Shown here one piece after another: positions 1,821 to 11,426 of a stretch of 26,877 bases of DNA (within the stretch, counting starts at the first letter, position 1; each line of letters starts with the position of its first letter). The position numbers and the translations under genes were made by a program. The stretch spans positions 1 to 26,877 of the forward strand of contig DAOVET010000033.1 in assembly GCA_030668825.1 (NCBI GenBank). Direction: 5' to 3'. The notes beneath the pieces are model-generated. The model saw only the letters and a list, made by a program, of their open reading frames with translations. It did not search any database and was not told the DNA's origin. The DNA is from Candidatus Heimdallarchaeota archaeon. GTDB taxonomy: Archaea; Asgardarchaeota; Heimdallarchaeia; Heimdallarchaeales; Heimdallarchaeaceae.

Positions 1821-2516
1821 TTAATCCGGTGTAGAGAATCTTTCAATAATATGCTCACTAAGAATTTCAAACGATTTGTCTATGTTCAATCCTGTTTTAG
1901 CTGAGGTTTCTAGAAGAAAATTTTCTATTGAATGCTCTTTTGTTTTCTTATTCAGCTCTTTTACAAACGACTTTATTTCTTCAATTGTTACTTTTTGTTC
2001 ATCGACAAGATCCATTTTATTTGCAAGTATTATGACAGGAACAACTCCTCTACCGCTAAATTGGTATAACTCCTCTATCCAACTACCTAAGTTAAGAAAT
2101 GTTTCTCTTCGAGTTATATCCAACACCGCTAAGGCTCCGAAACATCCTTTGAAAAACCTTGGTCTAACATTTTTGAACATGGGTTGCCCTGCCAAATCCC
2201 AGATTTGATATTTTATCTTATACTCATCTACAGTTCTAGTAGTGGCAGCAAAATCAGCTCCAAGAGTAGCTAAATGCTCTTTCTGAAACCCCTCACCTAG
2301 ATATCTTTTCCTTATGGATGTTTTACCAACGGCAGCATCACCAATTAAAACTAACTTAATCATATATGCACTCGTTGATTTAGGCTGAGGATCTACATCT
2401 GAAAAATGTTCATCATCTATACTTTCCCTATGTTTTTTGATATTTTCTTTAAACATAATGGGACCTTTATCTGATTTTACATCCTTACTCTTGGGAGATT
2501 GCTTCTTATTAGCCAT
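1821..2516 (-). CDS. Rab-like Ras-superfamily small GTPase
   Basis: G1 GDAAVGKT, G2 region ATLGADF, G3 WDLAGQ, G4 NKMD, G5 SAK. Confidence 0.95.
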   Translation of the reverse strand: MANKKQSPKSKDVKSDKGPIMFKENIKKHRESIDDEHFSDVDPQPKSTSAYMIKLVLIGDAAVGKTSIRKRYLGEGFQKEHLATLGADFAATTRTVDEYKIKYQIWDLAGQPMFKNVRPRFFKGCFGALAVLDITRRETFLNLGSWIEELYQFSGRGVVPVIILANKMDLVDEQKVTIEEIKSFVKELNKKTKEHSIENFLLETSAKTGLNIDKSFEILSEHIIERFSTPD

Positions 2517-2606
2517 GTTATCTGTTAAATAGTGAATGTTAACTATATAAAAATATGTGGTAGCATTTTGTGAAATACAGGAAAAAAGGAATAATATGTT
2601 CCAATT

Positions 2607-3329
2607 TCAAGTTTCTCTAGACATAATCTGATGAATAATTTGATAGTTTTTGGCTAATTTCCCGATTTCTTCTGCTTCACTAAGTGTAAGATGAAAAGGT
2701 GTCCTCTTATCTTTATATGTGCCCTCAATTAGAGCATAATCTACGCCTCTTACATATTCCTTTAATTGATCAAAATAACCCGTATCTCCAGTGTAAAGGA
2801 CTTTTTCTGCATTCTTGCATATTATATATCCTACAGAGGGAATATTTGGAAGTTTTTCCCCACCTATTATTGATCCACGATGTTGAACGACAAAAGCAGA
2901 GATGAGCGTATTCTCTAATTCAAATTCCCTTTCTATATTAATTATTTCAAGTTGATATGGTATTGATTCTCCATAACTATCATAAAACGTTTTTACTAAT
3001 CCTTCTAACTCAACAACATCTGGGGGTGCAATCAAAAGAAGTTTTTTACTTCTATTTATCATCCTGAAGAAAGCTAAAAGTGAAAATATACCTCCCACAT
3101 GATCAAAGTGACCATGAGTGATCAGTATGGTATCAATATTTTCGAAATATTTGCTAGGTAAAGAAACCAAATCGCGTAATATTCCATCACCCACATCTAT
3201 CAAAAAATTTGAATCTTTCTCAATGTCATTTACCAGTATTTGAGTTGCTAAACCTGCAGAAGAGAAGAGAACTTTGACTCGTAGATGTTTACCAATCCAA
3301 TCCCATGAAACTTCTTTGGAAACTTCCAT
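2607..3329 (-). CDS. metallo-beta-lactamase fold hydrolase (RNase Z/ElaC-like)
   Basis: LIDVGDG, THGHFDH (HxHxDH), YTGDT, EGTY...H motifs. I prefer ATG 3329 over TTG 3353. Confidence 0.85.
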   Translation of the reverse strand: MEVSKEVSWDWIGKHLRVKVLFSSAGLATQILVNDIEKDSNFLIDVGDGILRDLVSLPSKYFENIDTILITHGHFDHVGGIFSLLAFFRMINRSKKLLLIAPPDVVELEGLVKTFYDSYGESIPYQLEIINIEREFELENTLISAFVVQHRGSIIGGEKLPNIPSVGYIICKNAEKVLYTGDTGYFDQLKEYVRGVDYALIEGTYKDKRTPFHLTLSEAEEIGKLAKNYQIIHQIMSRET

Positions 3330-3412
3330 AGATAGAATAGAGAACAGCTGCAAATATTTCTTTCGTTTCCTTTGCCGATATATTTTTACTTGAAAATGTA
3401 GTAAGATACCTA

Positions 3413-4432
3413 ATGATATTTCTGCGTAGATTCTTTACTCGTCCCTTGACAAAAATGTCAGATAGATGGAAAGGTAAAAAGAAACTACATCTAGCAGCAA
3501 GATCAGCTTATCTTAGCTACAAGATAGGCAAAGAAGATCCTGAGAGATTGCTACAAATTGCAGCTCTAGAAATGAAAGCAGAGAAGTATAGTCTAACCAT
3601 TAGATATCTTGAAGAATATCTAGAACTTAATCTTGATTCGAAAAAAGCCTTACTTCTTCTTGGAATCGCTTATAGGCGCAATAAGGATTATGAAAAAGCT
3701 ATCAAGACACACCTCAAGTGTTTAAAAAAAGGAGAGGAAGAATCAGACATACTTTATACCTTGGGCATTGATTATGAAAGAGCAGGAAAAATTAGAACAA
3801 CTAAAAGATATTATGCAAAATGTATAGAAATAGATAGCTCTTTTGCAAAAGCTTATTTTCGTCTAGCTAGGCTCTATATGCGAGATAAGAAATATGATTT
3901 GGCAGTTAATCTGTATTTGGATGGCTTATCTCTAAGAGAAGGAGCTGCTAAAGATTGGATTAACTTATCCTTTTGTTACATAAATACATCAAATCTCGTT
4001 GCAGCAGAAAAAGCGTTATTAGAGGCTCTAGAAAACTTTCCAGACTCCTCTGAAGTGCTATTTGCGCTTGGAGCTTACTATATTAAGAAACAAAAATATA
4101 ACAAAATTCCAGAGATAATTTCGAAGCTAGATTCTGAAGAAGATTGGTACATAGTTCTATCTCTGCAGTTGAAAGAAGCACTAGATAAGAAAGAATACGA
4201 AGAATTGGAGAAGTTGTTAGAGCAAATCAAAAAAGAAGATAGAAATGCAGAGTATTGGTATATGGAAGCGATAGTTTCTTCAAATAGAAATAAATCAAAG
4301 AAAGCAATTCAATCCTTGAACAAAGCATTAGAGTTAGATCCTGAACTAAGAAAAGAAGCAAAGAAAGATGACAATTTCGCAATGATAAGGAAGCTAGAAG
4401 AATTCAAACACATAATTTATCTAAGAAAGTAG
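3413..4432 (+). CDS. tetratricopeptide-repeat protein
   Basis: Several TPR-consensus helical repeats, e.g. ALLLLGIAYRRNKDYEKAI, AYFRLARLYMRDKKYDLAV, AIQSLNKALELDP. Confidence 0.9.
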   Translation: MIFLRRFFTRPLTKMSDRWKGKKKLHLAARSAYLSYKIGKEDPERLLQIAALEMKAEKYSLTIRYLEEYLELNLDSKKALLLLGIAYRRNKDYEKAIKTHLKCLKKGEEESDILYTLGIDYERAGKIRTTKRYYAKCIEIDSSFAKAYFRLARLYMRDKKYDLAVNLYLDGLSLREGAAKDWINLSFCYINTSNLVAAEKALLEALENFPDSSEVLFALGAYYIKKQKYNKIPEIISKLDSEEDWYIVLSLQLKEALDKKEYEELEKLLEQIKKEDRNAEYWYMEAIVSSNRNKSKKAIQSLNKALELDPELRKEAKKDDNFAMIRKLEEFKHIIYLRK

Positions 4433-4490
4433 TAAGAACTATCTAATCAAAAGTCCAGAATTCTTAAATAATTTGTCGAGAAAGACATAA

Positions 4491-4919
4491 GTGATGCCAG
4501 AAATTAATCGTGATGCAATTATAGAAGCAGTCAAGAAACCAATTAATAGAATCTTTGAAGCATTGGAAAAAATTGACGCCGATACTCTTTTAGAAAACTA
4601 CCACAACCATGCTGAATTTAGATCTGTTGCACTTGTATTTGAGCAAATACTCAACCTAACCTATGAAGAATTTTCTGTAGCTATGAAAGGGGCATATGAG
4701 ACTGTGAAAGAACAAAAAATGATTAGAGAAACAGAATTTTTCAATGTTCTTTCAGAAACAAAAGTCCTGTACAACACAACAGGAACAGGATGCCAAATAC
4801 CAAAAGAAGGAGAAAGAATGGACTTTATAGTAATAGTGACACTGATACTCTCGTTAATAGAAGGAGAATGGAAAGTAATACACGAAACAGAAGCAGTGAT
4901 ACCAAAAAAAGAAGAATAA
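4491..4919 (+). CDS. NTF2/SnoaL-like fold protein
   Basis: ~140 aa with an N-terminal helix (IFEALEKIDADTL) and the C-terminal TLIL...GEWKVIHE motif typical of SnoaL/NTF2 folds. Confidence 0.7.
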   Translation: MMPEINRDAIIEAVKKPINRIFEALEKIDADTLLENYHNHAEFRSVALVFEQILNLTYEEFSVAMKGAYETVKEQKMIRETEFFNVLSETKVLYNTTGTGCQIPKEGERMDFIVIVTLILSLIEGEWKVIHETEAVIPKKEE

Positions 4920-4989
4920 AATGGGTAATAAAGGAATAATCTGTTTATCAATTAAAAACTGATCTAAAGCCTCCGTTTTAGGTGATTTA

Positions 4990-5853
4990 TTGCAAGTCAA
5001 AATAACAATAGTAAGTGAAAAAAGTACGGTTAGGGACAATTTCCATGGTTTAAGAGTAGGACATGGATTGTCTATTCACATCTCCTTGGGAAACGAACAG
5101 ATACTTTTTGATTTAGGCTTAGTAGGAAAAATCCTCATAAGAAATATGCGTAATTTGAATATCAATCCTGATGAAATTAATAAAATTGTAATTTCTCATG
5201 GACATATGGATCATGTAAGAGGTTTTGGAAAATTCATACAGAATCGAAATAGAGAAGATAAGATCACTCTTTATGCCCATCCTTCAATAAGAGAACCTAA
5301 AAGAGCTTGTTTTCGAGGTTTACCCTTATGGAATGCTGGTTTTCCCGAAATGGATGAAGAAGTAATGAATAAAGTAGATTTCATCTATAGCAGAGATCCT
5401 GTTAAGATTGCACCTAAGCTTTTTACAACTGGAGAAATACATTTAGATCAAAGAACAGAGCTTATGAACGTATCAAGATACTTCTGTAACAAAGTTCAAG
5501 GAAAATGGAAACAAGATTTTATTCTAGATGAACAATCACTAATTCTCCAAACTCTTGAAGGACTAGTAATCTTATGTGGTTGTTGTCATCCAGGTATTGT
5601 GAATACTTGTAGGAAAGCACAAGAGCTATTTGATGACGAAATTGTAGCAATAATCGGTGGTGTACACCTAAATCTAGCTAAAAAAGAAAGAGTGGAAGCA
5701 GTAATAGAAAATATGAAACAAAACATAGGTCTACCTAAACTGTACCTAAATCATAGTACAGGGAAGAAGGCGCTTAAAACGTTAAAGGAAAGACTAGGAG
5801 AAGAAATAGTTAAAGAGTGTAAACATGGAACAAAATTGGACTTTAAATGCTGA
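4990..5853 (+). CDS. MBL-fold metallo-hydrolase (dihydropterin/aminobenzene-phosphate synthase-like clade)
   Basis: HGLS, ILFDLG, ISHGHMDH, DEQSL, GCCHPGIVN, GGVH, NHSTG motifs. Confidence 0.85.
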   Translation: MQVKITIVSEKSTVRDNFHGLRVGHGLSIHISLGNEQILFDLGLVGKILIRNMRNLNINPDEINKIVISHGHMDHVRGFGKFIQNRNREDKITLYAHPSIREPKRACFRGLPLWNAGFPEMDEEVMNKVDFIYSRDPVKIAPKLFTTGEIHLDQRTELMNVSRYFCNKVQGKWKQDFILDEQSLILQTLEGLVILCGCCHPGIVNTCRKAQELFDDEIVAIIGGVHLNLAKKERVEAVIENMKQNIGLPKLYLNHSTGKKALKTLKERLGEEIVKECKHGTKLDFKC

Positions 5854-5985: not shown

Positions 5986-6059
5986 GCGGAGTTAGCAAAG
6001 CGGCCATGCGGGAGTCTGCAAAACTCTTGACGGGTGTTCAAATCACCCACTCCGCTCCA
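5986..6059 (+). tRNA. tRNA-Cys(GCA), CCA encoded
   Basis: Acceptor GCGGAGT/ACTCCGC; anticodon stem GGAGT/ACTCT with loop CTGCAAA; T arm GGGTG-TTCAAAT-CACCC; U73 discriminator as expected for Cys; CCA at 6057-6059. Confidence 0.95.
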
Positions 6060-6094
6060 ACCTCCTTTCTATGGCAGTTTTAACGATTTTTTAA

Positions 6095-6203
6095 TTAGCA
6101 AAACCGTCATGCATCGCATGTTATGAAGTTTACTAAGTCTCCACTAAGGGCTTAGATTCACTTGATGAGGATTCCCCCATACTCCTCACATGCGGAGAGG
6201 AGT
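6095..6203 (-). ncRNA. putative omegaRNA-like scaffold plus guide overlapping the 3' end of the TnpB-like gene
   Basis: Perfect 7-bp hairpin 6181-6187/6197-6203 whose loop (6188-6194) is complementary to 6115-6121, giving a pseudoknot. There is a second hairpin at 6133-6155. The low-complexity C-terminal protein tail over this region is typical of tnpB/omegaRNA overlap. Boundaries are approximate. Confidence 0.55.
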
Positions 6204-8076
6204 GATCTTGTAATTGCAATAACTTTATTCCAATATCTCTAACATTCTTTGCGGAATTCACATGAGTATCTACAATATTTCCGCACTTTCTACATCTAGC
6301 TCTATCGTATCTCTTTAGCGATCTTTCTAATGTTCCTCTGCATCCATTATGATATCTGCTTGTTCCCCTCGAATCAACTCTCATTAGTTTTATTTCGTAT
6401 CCTAAAATACTTGAAGCAATTAATACAGCTTTTTCGAATATGTATGCTCCTTTTGGCATTGTTCTGATTGCTTTTGCTAGTGCTCCTTTTTTTCCTCTTG
6501 GATCTATTTCTAGATCTTCTTGGAAAAGCACTTTACACTTTGCCTTTACCATAACAGCTGCTAGGAAATGTGGTAGAATGCTCTTTATTTCTTTTAGAAT
6601 TCGGAATTTTCGCTGAGTAACTCTTGAAAGCTCTCCTTTCGTTTTAACGTAACTATAGGAGTCTTTCTTCTTTCCTTTATTTGTTAAACTATAGCTTAAT
6701 TCTGGTATCTTCGTCTTTGATAGTTTATAATATCGTTCTGTTAAAGTCAGAAGTTCTTTTGGTAGTTTAACATCATTTGAAAGTGCTACCATTTGTTTTC
6801 CTATGCGGTTGACATCTACTCCCATATATTCTGATTTAGGAACTTTGATTTTCTTAGCAAATTCTCTTGTAAGTTTTGTACCGATGAAAATTTCTTGCGG
6901 TCCTTCTAGAACAACAGATACTCTTACTTTGTAACTTGGTGCTGAACTATAGCGGATATAGAGGACTCTTATTCTTGCTCCATTAAGCAAATACCCTCTC
7001 ACTTTTTTTGAAAAGACAAGTTTTGCCGTTATCCTTGGATGATTTTTCAACAAGAATCCTATTTCAAATTCTCCATCAGCTCTTGCAAGAAATGTCATGT
7101 GTTCAGAATTTCCTGGTCTCATGACAACAAATCTTTCGTTCATTAACAATATAATTGGTGCTCTTCCTTTCTTCTTTCTTCTATATGGTGGATTGACAAC
7201 TTTTTCTGGATGTGTTTTCTCAAGTATTTTTTTGACAGTCTCTCCTATTTGCGGAAAGAGTGCGAAGACTACTATAGTCCTCAAAGCTGAGAAAAACATT
7301 CTACTTGGTTTTCCCACCACTTCTGCGATTCTTCTGTTTAGTTCTTTCATACTTTTCCAACGAGAAGGATGTTCAACATTATTCCATGAGGTGAGCATTG
7401 GGGCAACAGCTGTAACATTTGCTGTTAATAGTCTTGTATTCTCTAGAAAATCTTTCAAAGATCTACCTTGTTGAGTAGAAGTTAGTTCTTCGCATAGTTT
7501 CTTGTAATAGCGGATAATAGCTCTTTCTATTTCTTTTTGTGTTAATAGGGGGAGTTTAGTGTTGAATTTCAATGAATTAGGGCAATATTTGTCTATCTGT
7601 CTTCTTGTTCTGTTTATCAGATTGATGACATAAAGTCTGCTAACTTCCCACTTCTTGTAGAGATACTTTTCCATTCTTGGACTTCGACCAAAGATTATCC
7701 ATTCAACAGCTTGTTCAGGTCGTTGTAAAAGTTGATTAAAGAAATCCTCGACTTTCTTCTCTCTATCAACCGTTCCTTTAGCTGCAACAAAGAGCCAATA
7801 ATAAGCACTTTGAGTGATGTTTCTAGAATTCCTGGTAATTTTAGAAATAGAGGAAGCACCCATCTTTGCATTCAAATTTGGATCTGTTCTTGCCAAAACC
7901 ATTGCTGCGTTGATAGCTTTCTTGTCGCGGATAATATCTTCTTGTTGAACTTGCAAACCTTTTATTCGTTGGTTAGCTTCTTTTTCGTCTTTCCTACGTT
8001 CCTCTCTAGTACCTTCAAACCTGACACCCATTTGATAAGTGCGAGTGACTAATGTTTGTTTTGCTTGAGAGGACAT
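6133..8076 (-). CDS. large TnpB/Cas12-like RNA-guided RuvC-family protein (RuvC-III D->H)
   Basis: N-terminal TRTYQ strand; RuvC-I YMGVDVN; RuvC-II LFQEDL; VDSRGTSRYHNGC...CRKCG zinc ribbon; RuvC-III-like DTHVNSAKNV; strongly basic; 647 aa. Confidence 0.85.
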   Translation of the reverse strand: MSSQAKQTLVTRTYQMGVRFEGTREERRKDEKEANQRIKGLQVQQEDIIRDKKAINAAMVLARTDPNLNAKMGASSISKITRNSRNITQSAYYWLFVAAKGTVDREKKVEDFFNQLLQRPEQAVEWIIFGRSPRMEKYLYKKWEVSRLYVINLINRTRRQIDKYCPNSLKFNTKLPLLTQKEIERAIIRYYKKLCEELTSTQQGRSLKDFLENTRLLTANVTAVAPMLTSWNNVEHPSRWKSMKELNRRIAEVVGKPSRMFFSALRTIVVFALFPQIGETVKKILEKTHPEKVVNPPYRRKKKGRAPIILLMNERFVVMRPGNSEHMTFLARADGEFEIGFLLKNHPRITAKLVFSKKVRGYLLNGARIRVLYIRYSSAPSYKVRVSVVLEGPQEIFIGTKLTREFAKKIKVPKSEYMGVDVNRIGKQMVALSNDVKLPKELLTLTERYYKLSKTKIPELSYSLTNKGKKKDSYSYVKTKGELSRVTQRKFRILKEIKSILPHFLAAVMVKAKCKVLFQEDLEIDPRGKKGALAKAIRTMPKGAYIFEKAVLIASSILGYEIKLMRVDSRGTSRYHNGCRGTLERSLKRYDRARCRKCGNIVDTHVNSAKNVRDIGIKLLQLQDHSSPHVRSMGESSSSESKPLVET

Positions 8077-8103
8077 AATGTAACTGCTAATATCATATGT
8101 ACT

Positions 8104-8120
8104 TTCATTTATAAACTGAG
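8104..8120 (-). promoter_or_regulatory. 17-bp repeated element containing a TATA box, upstream of the TnpB-like gene
   Basis: Minus strand CTCAGTTTATAAATGAA, with TTTATAAA ending ~32 nt before ATG 8076. Identical copy at 10985-11001. Confidence 0.6.
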
Positions 8121-8265
8121 AAAAAAAAAATGATTCTTTTTGAATTATTTATGTATTATCTAGCCTCTATTTCTTTTGATTTTCTTCTCAAAAACCTTCT
8201 TTTATGATACTTTGGGGACATGAGAGGTTTTAACAGTCCAATTATAGTCCTATTATTTTTCTATT

Positions 8266-10962
8266 TTAATAATACCTCAAAACTGAATTTTCATCTAATT
8301 CTATTTTACATATAGGGCATATTTCTTTCACTTTCATCCATTCAATTAAGTGATTCTTGTGGAAGACATGACCACAGTCTACTATCTGAACTAGCTCATC
8401 ATTTGCAACCATATACTTCATACAAATTTCACATTTTCTAGTTTTCTTCCCACAGTTTAAACAGATAAGAGGACCGCCGTCTTCAACAATCTCAAGTAGA
8501 GCATCACAGAAGTAGCAGAACAACTCTTCATCTAGTTTCTTAATGTTCTTAACAGTGTCTTTTTCTACAATGATTTTTACCTCTTTCCTAGGATTTTCTA
8601 GTAGTTTACTCTGCTTAATTTTTCTGAGGACTACTCCTTGATTTGTGAAAAACTCAGCAAGTGAAGGTTCGCTTTGTTCTTTTCTCTGCTTTCCAAATCT
8701 CATATATCTCATAAACAGCATTAAAAATAATCCCGAAATAATAATTGACCATGGAAATAGCTTTCCTGCATAATTCTTATTCAGATAGATGAATAGAAGC
8801 CATCCAGACAAAAAGAAGCCATATTTTGTAAGCCTAAAAATAGACTTGTTTATACTATGGAGATCCTTGTAAAAGGTATTTGTAGAAGTGTTGAGCACTA
8901 CTGAAAACCAAAAGAAAGTAGAAGCAAAGAGTATTGTTGTAAAAGCATTGAACGAGATTTTACCCAAGATAACAAACTCAAAATCAGTATTATCACTGTT
9001 AGCTATTGAAACTAATCTCTCAAGAACTAGCCAGAATCCCACGTTTTTTAGGATTATGAAAACAACAGTAGCTCCTAACAGAATTTTTCTCAAGTTACCT
9101 AAAATACTGAAATTGAAGAACCGCTCTGTTTTAACATATCCTCCATTGAAATGAAGTTCGTATTCTTCGTCATCAAGTTTTACTTGAGCATTCCTGTTTG
9201 TTCCTTTGTTTTTCTTGTCTAAATGTCTTACTAGAACAATTAATGCTATTGCATCTAGAAGGAAACTAATACTCATCAGAGTTGTTATTGAAGGCTTGAA
9301 AGGTTTTGAGTCACTGTTTAGGTTAGGAAGTTCAAAGGGGTTCGTCGATGTGACAACTTCCTCAGAAGTTGCTGCAAGTATGTAACTAAGCTCCTCTATT
9401 GTAACTACTAAGCCTTCTCCGTAAATTAATAATAGTATTTCTATTTCTTGATAGCCTTGGTTTAATTCTATGATTACTCCATCATTGATTGTTTGTTTAT
9501 CATTAAATAATTGAAAGAAAACCTGATTATTGTCTATCTTAATTCTCAAAATGAATTGATTAACAGGTGAGTAAAACTCATTGTATAGTTTTATGGAGAA
9601 AGAAAGATTGAAAGTGGCTGAATCAGAATCAAGATAGAAACCATCTGTGAATTTAACTGTTAAAGCTCCTATAGTTGGTGTTTCATAATTTTTTGAAGAG
9701 ACTACGGTTTTTTCTAGTGTATCGTTCTCATCAAATGTTGGAATGGGTTCTATCTCAATCTTACAAGTATTGAGTAAGTAGAAAATACCCTCTCTCGTTG
9801 CTGTTCCATAGACACGAAAAGCAATTTCAGAAAAATAATTCACAGTGTAAGTGTCAATGAAAATTCCATTAGGGTAATTAAACAGATCTGTTCCTGAATA
9901 GATGACTTCAGAATCTGATAATAACTCATAATCTAAGGTAGGTAAGATTACTGAGCCCACATAACCATAATATAACGAGACGTGTAAATTCTGCTCATTA
10001 ATGTTAGAAAAGGGTTTTAGTAATGATAAATTAAAGGGGTAATTTACTGAAGGATTATTACAAGAAAACCAATCAAAACAATCTTCTGGGATTTGGTCTT
10101 CGAGAAATTGAAGCTTTCCTGATAGAGCTATATTAGTAAACCATATCTCATCCATGCACATGTTAACACAGAAATAAAAACGAATTATGTTCACCCCCTG
10201 CTCTAATGGGATAGATAAAGAGACAATAATAGATGGATTATCAGAAAAGCTTTCAATGATGATGATCGTGTTGTTAATTTTTACTTCTATATATTGAGAG
10301 AAGGCATAGAAGGAGTTTGCTGTAAAAGAAAGAGTGACATTTAATGTGGTGGTGTCATTAACAGAATAAACAGCTGTTTCAATATAATCGCTTCTGACAC
10401 CTGAAATATATCCATAATAACCTATTTGACCAGGATTACAAGGAAGGGGCGTTGAGTACTTATCAAGAATAGGAATTGGAATTGTGTCAATTGTTGATTT
10501 ACTGAATATTTGAATAGTACCAGAATTAATGGAATAAGATGTTTTACCTTCACATGAAACAGTAATAATCATCGAACCGATGAAGTTTTGAGGATAGGAA
10601 AATGATTTAGAAAGAGAGTGTTCATAAGAATCCTGATAAATACGGTTAATGTTAATTTCTACTTCAGTAGTGTCCAAATACAAAACAATTGTTAATCCAT
10701 TTGAGTCAGTCCTATCACCAGAAAAGAGAAAGAATATAGTTAAACTATTATATTCTAGAAGTTCAAGATTGACTAGTTCAAAAGTAAAATTTTGTTTTAC
10801 AGAAGTTGAGTCATAAGAATACAGTATATTTTCATCTATGATAGTAGTGTCATAAGTAGAAAGGAGGTTAGGAACATTATTTTGATTTCTTGCAATACCT
10901 AAAGAACTGGTAAAACAAAAGAGTGTTAACACCAATAACATGTTTCTAGTTGTGTTTCTCAT
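8266..10962 (-). CDS. secreted multi-pass membrane protein with C-terminal zinc ribbon + RING-H2-like domain (putative E3 ligase)
   Basis: Signal peptide (MLLVLTLFCFTSSLGIA), ~530-aa beta-rich N/S/T-rich ectodomain, about five hydrophobic segments, then CYFC..CLNC and CEIC-x15-CGHVFHKNH-LIEW...CPIC. I prefer ATG 10962 because the track start at 10989 overlaps the TATA box. Confidence 0.85.
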   Translation of the reverse strand: MRNTTRNMLLVLTLFCFTSSLGIARNQNNVPNLLSTYDTTIIDENILYSYDSTSVKQNFTFELVNLELLEYNSLTIFFLFSGDRTDSNGLTIVLYLDTTEVEININRIYQDSYEHSLSKSFSYPQNFIGSMIITVSCEGKTSYSINSGTIQIFSKSTIDTIPIPILDKYSTPLPCNPGQIGYYGYISGVRSDYIETAVYSVNDTTTLNVTLSFTANSFYAFSQYIEVKINNTIIIIESFSDNPSIIVSLSIPLEQGVNIIRFYFCVNMCMDEIWFTNIALSGKLQFLEDQIPEDCFDWFSCNNPSVNYPFNLSLLKPFSNINEQNLHVSLYYGYVGSVILPTLDYELLSDSEVIYSGTDLFNYPNGIFIDTYTVNYFSEIAFRVYGTATREGIFYLLNTCKIEIEPIPTFDENDTLEKTVVSSKNYETPTIGALTVKFTDGFYLDSDSATFNLSFSIKLYNEFYSPVNQFILRIKIDNNQVFFQLFNDKQTINDGVIIELNQGYQEIEILLLIYGEGLVVTIEELSYILAATSEEVVTSTNPFELPNLNSDSKPFKPSITTLMSISFLLDAIALIVLVRHLDKKNKGTNRNAQVKLDDEEYELHFNGGYVKTERFFNFSILGNLRKILLGATVVFIILKNVGFWLVLERLVSIANSDNTDFEFVILGKISFNAFTTILFASTFFWFSVVLNTSTNTFYKDLHSINKSIFRLTKYGFFLSGWLLFIYLNKNYAGKLFPWSIIISGLFLMLFMRYMRFGKQRKEQSEPSLAEFFTNQGVVLRKIKQSKLLENPRKEVKIIVEKDTVKNIKKLDEELFCYFCDALLEIVEDGGPLICLNCGKKTRKCEICMKYMVANDELVQIVDCGHVFHKNHLIEWMKVKEICPICKIELDENSVLRYY

Positions 10963-10984
10963 TATCTGTATTATAATCTGAAAA

Positions 10985-11001
10985 TTCATTTATAAACTGA
11001 G
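10985..11001 (-). promoter_or_regulatory. second copy of the 17-bp TATA-containing element, upstream of the RING gene
   Basis: Identical to 8104-8120. The TATA ends ~27 nt before ATG 10962, which fits a leaderless transcript. Confidence 0.6.
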
Positions 11002-11072
11002 TAAAATCATATCTACAATATCTGAATCTTGTTGGGTTTAAATAAAAACTTTGCATTTCTATATTGAGAAAG

Positions 11073-11243
11073 ATGTTCATAATTGAATTTCTTAAGACTT
11101 TAAGATCAAAGAAAAGAGGAGGCCCCATTCTAGAAGAGATTCTACTTATTGGTATTGCTATCGTTATTTTTGCTATAATCTTTGCACTAATTTTCAGCTT
11201 AATAGATTGGTCTGCAGTCAAATTTGATGATATTTTCGGGTGA
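11073..11243 (+). CDS. Flp-like type IV pilin (class III signal peptide), 56 aa
   Basis: Not in the ORF track. MFIIEFLKTLRSKKRG|GPILEEILLIGIAIVIFAIIFALIFSLIDWSAVKFDDIFG has a basic leader ending KRG, Glu at +5 and a ~20-aa hydrophobic helix. Confidence 0.75.
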   Translation: MFIIEFLKTLRSKKRGGPILEEILLIGIAIVIFAIIFALIFSLIDWSAVKFDDIFG

Positions 11244-11397
11244 AGTCTTTTCTTCTAATTTAAAGAAATTTCAATTTTTAGTGAGTTTATAAGGTGAGTT
11301 ATGATATCTCTTTTGAAGCTAGTTATACACAAGATAACATTTTAGTCGATGAATCTCTTTCTATAGCTAGCTTCCCCATTTTAGAAAAAGGAATGTG

Positions 11398-11426
11398 AGG
11401 AGTTCAAATCTCCGACCCCGCTCCAA
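11398..11426 (+). repeat. tRNA-Cys 3' remnant (att-like direct repeat of 6032-6060)
   Basis: AGGAGTTCAAATCTCCGACCCCGCTCCAA versus GGGTGTTCAAATCACCCACTCCGCTCCAA: 24/29 identical, T-loop and TCCA end preserved, no 5' half immediately upstream. Confidence 0.8.

Follow-up and report, generated by a model that had tools for sequence, protein, structure and literature searches.

The window analysed here is the whole stretch of 26,877 nucleotides (nt) from contig DAOVET010000033.1 of a Candidatus Heimdallarchaeota archaeon, and all coordinates are positions in it. An earlier note on this DNA had pointed to a TnpB-like gene whose predicted guide resembles the adjacent tRNA-Cys. It is now largely shown that an IS607-type TnpB-like gene without TnpA, together with an omegaRNA-like scaffold, is fixed here at the tRNA-proximal edge of a variable island. 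The 18 nt after the scaffold, as judged from the alignments, are likewise largely shown to be a conserved, hard-wired copy of tRNA-Cys positions 7-24, not an arbitrary flank. The tRNA and the module carry the following features.

5986-6059, plus strand: tRNA-Cys(GCA), found by ARAGORN and Rfam (58.7 bits); the island lies directly 3' of this tRNA
5992-6009, plus strand: tRNA positions 7-24 (last acceptor base, positions 8-9, and D-arm), the candidate target
6060-6094: AT-rich spacer from the tRNA 3' end to the 18-mer, varying in length and sequence among relatives
6095-6112, minus strand: guide-position 18-mer, antisense to tRNA-Cys positions 7-24
6113-6202, minus strand: omegaRNA-like scaffold over the last ~70 nt of the open reading frame (ORF), by covariation in 29 sequences
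6182-6202, minus strand: scaffold hairpin 1
6165-6180, minus strand: scaffold hairpin 2
6188-6194, minus strand: hairpin loop pairing with 6115-6121 as the scaffold pseudoknot
6133-8076, minus strand: 647-amino-acid (aa) protein of TnpB/Cas12f fold, IS607-type family, with D421, E520, H605 and an HCCC zinc ribbon

The 647-aa protein was assigned by several searches. The Cas12f1-like TNB domain of Pfam was hit at 1.3e-4, i.e., under its cut-off, IS607_TnpB of NCBIfam gave a weak match, and the Cas12f model of PADLOC matched at 3.9e-8. A profile of 20 sequences, searched against the PDB, matched Cas12f and TnpB structures over RuvC-II, the zinc ribbon, and RuvC-III (best E-value 5.5e-7). The AlphaFold model (pLDDT 84.9) was used in Foldseek, which returned Cas12f, ISFba1 TnpB, ISDra2 TnpB, Cas12h, Cas12k, Cas12g, Cas12m, and Fanzor2 at a probability of 1.00, with modest TM-scores of 0.2-0.45. 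D421 (GVDVNR) and E520 (EDL) are invariant across the family alignment, as are the HCCC residues, and the full C-terminal zinc ribbon is kept. The ratio of nonsynonymous to synonymous divergence (dN/dS) was 0.10-0.17 in 8 pairs, indicating that the gene is under purifying selection. The RuvC/zinc-ribbon fold and the order of parts, i.e., a scaffold over the gene 3' end, a pseudoknot, and then a guide, are those of IS607 TnpB/OMEGA systems. Unlike in those systems, the protein here has ~650 aa with a helical N-terminal lobe of ~400 aa, and its third RuvC residue is His.

The scaffold was compared in 29 sequences. In the whole structure, 91.7% of the cells were paired and 13 of the 19 pairs showed both-side changes; none of 500 shuffles scored as high, and the structure was also above all slid controls. 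The seven pairs of the pseudoknot were 99% paired, with both-side changes in five, and a hairpin loop pairing ~70 nt downstream is common to all clades. The 18-mer starts two bases past the 3' strand of the pseudoknot, which is the guide slot of TnpB. The Rfam gathering scan of the window returned three tRNAs only and no other RNA family. The earlier note had read a TnpB-like protein, a pseudoknotted scaffold, and an 18-mer in the guide slot, 2 nt past the pseudoknot, from this locus, and the reading is borne out by the profile search, Foldseek, and the covariation (7 pairs in 29 sequences).

Two sequencing runs labelled RNA-Seq (X19 and X20) were rated probably DNA; their contigs are unable to show RNA ends, and the runs were not used for expression. 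As a pointer only, the sole contig of X20 on the 6.5-kb stretch covers 6077-6257, i.e., the spacer end, the 18-mer, the scaffold, and the final 125 nt of the ORF.

The plus strand at 6095-6112 is identical to tRNA-Cys 5992-6009 at 15/18 positions. Read on the minus strand against the tRNA, the mismatches are one rU-G wobble and two true ones, which leaves 16/18 paired. The 5' flank of the tRNA target on the strand of the 18-mer is ACTCCC (6010-6015). These values had been given in the earlier note and are reproduced as stated.

The guide was then sought among relatives. About 60 loci were examined out of roughly 150 family matches, and loci, genomes, and contigs of this comparison set are labelled L, G, and C. 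A tRNA-Cys-like 18-mer was found at the guide slot in 19 units at 18 loci, i.e., in 16 genomes of the genus and two metagenome contigs, with loci counted once each. One further unit in L041, beyond the 19, was detected by repeat search only. The order is repeated as gene, scaffold, 18-mer, unalignable AT-rich spacer, and complete antisense tRNA-Cys. The spacer has 25-75 nt in the relatives and ~620 nt in one of them. In all islands the side of the tRNA is constant, and the module occupies the tRNA-proximal edge.

Over the 19 units, mean pairwise identity was 0.78 for the 18-mer (0.73 without its first 4 nt) and 0.35 for the next 18 nt, at a synonymous divergence (dS) of the TnpB-like gene of 0.4-2.2 between these loci. 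The likeness to the tRNA has sharp limits on both sides and ends at 18 nt in all 19 units, with no acceptor stem. Because this likeness never reaches the acceptor stem, the 18-mer is taken as maintained in the form of a guide-length unit.

The 18-mer might also be a fossil flank that no longer serves as a guide, i.e., a vertically inherited right-end leftover of an ancestral IS607-type element whose antisense insertion separated the D-arm from the anticodon arm of a tRNA-Cys copy. The canonical TnpB guide is a mere flank, and the transposon-like clade of this family behaves so: its copies diverge right after the scaffold, and the sequences beyond all differ. Flanks made of tRNA pieces were found in other members (L107 and L112), and loci with more similar host flanking genes also have more similar TnpB-like genes, as vertical descent would allow. 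However, a leftover would hardly keep the 18-mer at 0.78 beside 0.35 at such dS, nor stop at exactly 18 nt in every unit. Derived alleles of other genomes are matched exactly by four guides, purifying selection acts on the gene, and close relatives differ in whether they have the locus. The fossil flank is considered improbable.

A kindred option of the earlier note placed the element in a second tRNA-Cys copy, whose 5' part became the guide and whose 3' part lies at the far end of the island. The displaced 3' part is real (11398-11425), but a resident second copy as the source of the guide did not stand. The empty sites hold a single tRNA, whole-genome ARAGORN found one tRNA-Cys gene in the own assembly, and the likeness stops at 18 nt; because of these, the 18-mer is taken to travel with the module. 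An insertion into a second tRNA-Cys gene may still be its distant origin.

The guides were compared with resident and foreign alleles of tRNA-Cys. None of the 19 guides is identical to the own tRNA-Cys, whereas four of the 19 are identical (18/18) to alleles of other genomes, three of these four sites being without the gene. One of the four is the guide of G021, which equals the allele common to the window, G009, G020, and G027. The best matches to the own tRNA (17/18 and 16/18) are both in gene-less remnants, and the three gene-less remnants match their own tRNA at 15-17/18. Mismatches to the resident allele fall in the guide part nearest the scaffold. With only a single tRNA-Cys gene in the window's genome, perfect self-targeting would be costly. 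The pattern is one of a conserved guide that follows existing tRNA-Cys alleles but avoids the resident one, in an island that is gained and lost beside this tRNA.

The tRNA-Cys gene itself varies. Its identity to the allele of the window ranges from 71 to 100% in the genus, and 14 of the 21 full-length matches do not exceed 78%. The tRNA-Gly(GCC) and tRNA-Gly(TCC) genes show 97-100% and 82-100%, respectively, each in 22 genomes. Among these three, tRNA-Cys is the most variable, in a comparison with only two controls, both tRNA-Gly genes of the window. Within the genus, alleles of tRNA-Cys differ by up to 29%, D-loops have 18-20 nt, and whole stems carry compensatory changes.

The allele comparison bears on a regulatory role. 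Similar to TldR, a domesticated protein could bind the resident tRNA-Cys or its surroundings and modulate transcription of the tRNA or the island, tolerating the D-loop mismatches. TldR is also a TnpB relative at a conserved locus with a conserved guide, as told in the available text of a 2026 OMEGA review (PMC13565253). The guide here is conserved across species, as in the exapted TnpB repressors of that text (PMC13565253), the gene has long been retained at one locus under purifying selection, and the third RuvC site is His. However, the resident allele is the worse match, with its mismatches in the scaffold-proximal part of the guide. The protein has kept two catalytic residues and an entire C-terminal zinc ribbon, whereas TldR proteins have lost RuvC catalytic residues and are usually truncated at the C-terminus. 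The locus is gained and lost among close relatives, is mobile, and occurs in tandem arrays, unlike a fixed host regulator. Such a regulator is quite unlikely. For the same reason, i.e., because the resident allele is the poorly matched one, the earlier option of a non-cutting binder that regulates the tRNA gene or the tRNA is disfavoured.

The protein belongs to a wider family. The homologue search returned 32 proteins, and the named ones came from metagenome-assembled genomes of Heimdallarchaeota or Thorarchaeota. The own genome encodes four full-length paralogues with 42-49% identity. The family was found in 36 of 83 genomes of the class and in 24 of 24 other genomes of the genus, with at most 14 matches each, many at contig ends. 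The transposon-like clade, including both copies on C133, represents a conventional IS607-type element. In L023, L027, and others, a MerR-HTH and resolvase TnpA gene lies directly upstream of these relatives, which is the IS607 layout. By Pfam scan, TnpA is absent from the window's island. In the window's clade, unlike in IS607 systems, TnpA is missing, the guide is a conserved tRNA copy and not the landing-site flank, and the module sits at the edge of a cargo island beside an intact tRNA.

Further copies and remnants of the family were also seen. The two IS607-type copies at G000:C133:4852-6945 and 8787-10880 are 79% identical, in opposite orientation and 1.9 kb apart, and one of them carries a 45-codon TnpA relic. 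Position C133:4852 was rejected as a left end, because the conserved sequence upstream of it proved to be what remains of the C-terminal part of a TnpA gene. Two other contigs carry solo scaffold remnants (C127:11487-11585 and C45:4-262). In L036 and L038, 15 nt resembling a tRNA lie upstream of the gene; they form one arm of a local inverted repeat of that subclade and were rejected as a tRNA relic.

Other tRNAs were met at the guide slot. In L045 (G030:C136) and L084, the sequence after the scaffold matches that of the neighbouring tRNA-Pro(UGG), which has an intron; the match starts exactly at the intron site and runs back into the D-stem, with 13 nt exact and then a 1-nt gap; the member concerned is 50% identical to the window's protein. 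On the metagenome contig L112, the post-scaffold sequence is antisense to a tRNA 5' acceptor and D-arm, and on L107, a metagenome contig of the transposon-like clade, to a variable loop and T-arm. The C105 paralogue (G000:C105:42559-44720, L002; 49% identity) has a tRNA-Asn 80 nt upstream of it on its own strand. It is followed after the scaffold by a rearranged piece of the tRNA-Asn T-arm and acceptor, a layout kept in L040 and L042. In this Asn clade (C105, L040, and L042), the tRNA piece is ambiguous, i.e., sense or antisense. From these positions, tRNA genes seem to be frequent landing sites for the family.

The guide is complementary to the tRNA transcript in every clear case (Cys, Pro, L112, and L107). 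RNA might hence be the target, the guide pairing with tRNA-Cys transcripts of the host or of invaders and RuvC acting on RNA, as in some Cas12 subtypes. No target-adjacent motif (TAM) was found in target flanks or transposon left ends, and tRNA-directed Cas12 activities are published, in the available part of that report (10.64898/2026.01.16.699850). However, the convergent layout already accounts for the antisense orientation, folding of the tRNA buries the D-arm, no feature of the protein was shown to favour RNA, and the mismatch to the own tRNA applies equally. Targeting of RNA is very unlikely.

The island beyond the module carries two further genes and a tRNA fragment.

8266-10989, minus strand: 907-aa protein with a C-terminal RING finger (RING-H2; Pfam zf-RING_2, 1.7e-8)
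10946-11221, minus strand: hydrophobic ORF of 91 aa at the far end of the island, with a match also in L056
11398-11425, plus strand: displaced tRNA-Cys 3' fragment (T-arm, 3' acceptor strand, U73, and CCA)

The insert was delimited to ~6060-11425, i.e., about 5.4 kb at the 3' end of the sole tRNA-Cys. At the empty sites G009:C12 and G016:C84 (loci L053 and L054), the same flanking genes are found with only the tRNA between them. The right-flank genes there show 86-95% amino-acid identity to those of the window, and the sequence directly after the tRNA is the one that follows 11425 in the window. On the left of the tRNA, synteny holds across five loci, and on the right the genes match those of L038. 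In G006, which belongs to another genus, the tRNA is followed by an h296 homologue. L104, a metagenome contig whose protein is 94% identical, adjoins a tRNA identical to the allele of G016, where the site is empty; island presence therefore differs between very close genomes. A 287-aa gene of metallo-beta-lactamase fold, between a TPR gene and the tRNA (4491-5853), has no counterpart at the G009 and G016 loci, and the 5' side of the tRNA therefore also varies.

The ends of the islands point to their mode of exchange. The 3' part of the intact tRNA (6031-6059) and the fragment at 11398-11425 form a direct repeat. The T-stem of the fragment differs from the intact gene by a compensatory pair, and the fragment therefore derives from another functional allele. 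It consists of the T-arm and acceptor only, whereas far-end fragments start in the anticodon loop in L058, L059, and L060 and are chimeric across this loop in L061, L078, and L071. The crossovers are thus not at one fixed point, which indicates recombination through homology. Three tandem units were found in L041, and each opens with a tRNA 3' part followed by the spacer, the 18-mer, and the end of the scaffold; the locus also has a direct repeat of 53 nt (94% identity). The variable crossovers and tandem units together suggest recombination through homology, not a dedicated integrase. An intact tRNA at one end, a repeat of its 3' part at the other, and empty sites in relatives are shared with tRNA-integrating genomic islands, but unlike those, no island-encoded integrase was found here.

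In the DNA run X9, a minority contig (depth 6.8 versus ~23-30) joins 11428 to 6096 via 32 other letters. A circular form of the island was considered for this joint, but the spacer fits the type of a related strain, resembling that of G019:C558. A related strain, or a tandem unit of tRNA 3' part, spacer, and guide, is more likely the source of the joint than an island circle.

The cargo changes between islands. In L038, the TnpB-like gene is almost alone, and in L043 SIR2-TPR, RING, PLD-like, and LRR proteins are spread over 10.3 kb. The 907-aa RING protein had no match in PADLOC. The 91-aa ORF is also found upstream of the TnpB-like gene in L036, L010, L041, and L038. Defence-like cargo regions were noted at 2351-4807 and 8421-9188 of L043 and at 17405-18913 of L041. 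Related islands encode a SIR2 domain of the type associated with prokaryotic Argonautes, fused to TPR (PADLOC, 1e-37), a PLD/DrmC-like nuclease, and a DUF4145 protein. On G009:C12 (L048), at a site without a tRNA, homologues of the 907-aa and 91-aa proteins and SIR2-TPR accompany the TnpB-like gene, and the cargo therefore appears mobile with the module.

A constant tRNA side and a module at the tRNA-proximal edge would also suit marking in the manner of type V-K CRISPR-associated transposons (CASTs). A non-cutting complex would flag tRNA-Cys, and a recombinase in trans, i.e., IS607 TnpA or another, would integrate the island. Type V-K CASTs home to tRNA genes, and this case shares with them a protein of TnpB/Cas12 fold, Cas12k being among the fold matches, and a fixed guide toward an adjacent tRNA gene. 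The His at the third RuvC site and the same-family TnpA in congeners would agree with marking. Nevertheless, no Tn7-like or other recombinase gene was found in the islands examined, and TnsB, TnsC, TniQ, and a CRISPR array were absent in Pfam scans of the window neighbours and related-island cargo. The crossovers vary from the anticodon loop to the 3' end, unlike those of a site-specific enzyme. The guide is a poor match to the own attachment tRNA, which is the very site needing to be marked. The element also lies on the scaffold-proximal (TAM) side, ~85 nt off, and not downstream of the far end of the target as in type V-K CASTs. The earlier likening to nuclease-dead Cas12k is not supported, as Tn7-like genes are missing and His stands in for a catalytic residue at the third site alone, with D421 and E520 invariant. 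Marking of this kind is considered unlikely.

The reading preferred here, which is held with moderate confidence, is a hard-wired guide aimed at non-self alleles of tRNA-Cys, serving RNA-guided homing or exclusion. Recognition by the complex of protein and RNA would require a tRNA-Cys gene with a D-arm that matches the guide. With its three or more D-loop differences, the resident allele would escape, whereas the complex would cut or bind matching alleles that it meets on other chromosomes or on incoming DNA. The island would then be copied or retained through homologous recombination repair, for which the tRNA 3' part and the flank would supply the homology. Intronless homing or marker exclusion at a tRNA gene would thereby take place in an RNA-guided form. 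Of the options in the earlier note, the one in which the module homes to or guards tRNA-Cys sites with a mismatched resident allele is the best fit to the 19 units, given the counts of own (0/19) and foreign (4/19) identities.

A number of observations weigh against this reading. The first group concerns the match itself. For the window's guide, at least 15/18 to either tRNA strand was reached in 3 of 2000 mononucleotide shuffles of the 73-nt flank, but the 2.76-Mb assembly contains two other 15/18 sites, with 1.7 expected by composition. The single-genome match is thus weak, being significant locally but not over the genome, and it is the recurrence in relatives that carries real weight. When the 18-mer was compared with the genome and the sampled alleles, no site of at least 16/18 was found anywhere in the own assembly, and the best sampled tRNA-Cys allele reached 16/18. 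At the 12 loci with the gene, guides match the own tRNA less well (mean 13.6/18) than permuted alleles of those genomes (14.3; 20,000 permutations, P=0.005), which favours avoidance of the resident allele, but the effect is small (0.75 nt) and is overstated by this P because the genomes are kin. In the two closest pairs of occupied and empty sites (window/G009 and L104/G016), both members share the tRNA allele and the guide mismatches both, which casts doubt on homing into the closest relatives at present.

The second group concerns the machinery. In CnCas12f1, the Asp of DxNAAxNI is the third RuvC catalytic residue; the residue aligned with it in this family is an invariant His (H605) in 20 of 20 sequences, so the D-E-D triad is incomplete at this site. 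An Asp two residues before it (D603) occurs in only 5 of 20 sequences, the window's protein included. The same His occurs in the clade that acts like an active transposon, and the protein may therefore still be a nuclease despite the family-wide His at the third site. No clear TAM emerged, as the flanks of tRNA-Cys targets vary in the adjoining 5-6 nt, and no motif stood out in the sequences that flank the left ends of 11 copies with TnpA. The own assembly (90.6% complete) has only two TnpA fragments. No recombinase domain was found by Pfam in the window's island and neighbours and in 10 cargo proteins of related islands, nor by PADLOC. Among the sequencing runs for this stretch, none is on record as RNA.

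A wider proposal is offered only tentatively. The islands may be RNA-guided gene-drive or exclusion elements of Asgard archaea, which attack the common tRNA-Cys allele, are copied in by repair, and need no transposase or integrase. The resulting arms race would drive the diversity of tRNA-Cys D-loops and guides in the genus, and the same could hold at tRNA-Pro and tRNA-Asn.

A parallel in logic is intronless homing by free-standing homing endonucleases, e.g., SegB of phage T4 in a tRNA region, which is described in the available text of the OMEGA review (PMC13565253). In both cases a nuclease gene, here a putative one, lies beside its target, the resident allele does not match, and matching alleles exist elsewhere. 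Such homing also entails joint inheritance of the nuclease gene and its flank. Unlike there, recognition here would be by an RNA guide and not by protein, the host is archaeal, and cutting is predicted only. Cas12r-CRISPR of Thermus Lalka phages is also a type V effector on a mobile element that uses tRNA attachment sites, and in the available part of the report a role in conflicts among elements sharing such sites is proposed (10.64898/2026.04.20.719267). Its CRISPR spacers, according to that part, target other elements, whereas the single guide here copies the tRNA itself. In the passages covered, the 2026 OMEGA review mentions tRNA genes only for Dada transposons and T4 SegB (PMC13565253). 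No TnpB with a tRNA-copying guide was described in the literature searched, and supplementary tables of TnpB surveys may list tRNA-adjacent cases.

The guides of TnpB are understood as any DNA that happens to flank the transposon, and fixed tRNA-homing guides are known from CRISPR-associated transposons. The present family, found in the archaeal lineage closest to eukaryotes, appears to be a step between the two. The guide slot of a transposon nuclease has seemingly been turned into a conserved copy of a segment of an essential tRNA, at the edge of an island with changing and partly defence-like cargo. Its components are directly testable, i.e., one protein, one predicted RNA of ~180 nt, and natural target alleles. 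If active, the system would be an example from nature of RNA-guided homing or exclusion without need of a transposase, with a compact effector of unusual D-E-H active site. Islands would then exploit tRNA genes in a novel manner, and this might be one cause of rapid tRNA evolution.

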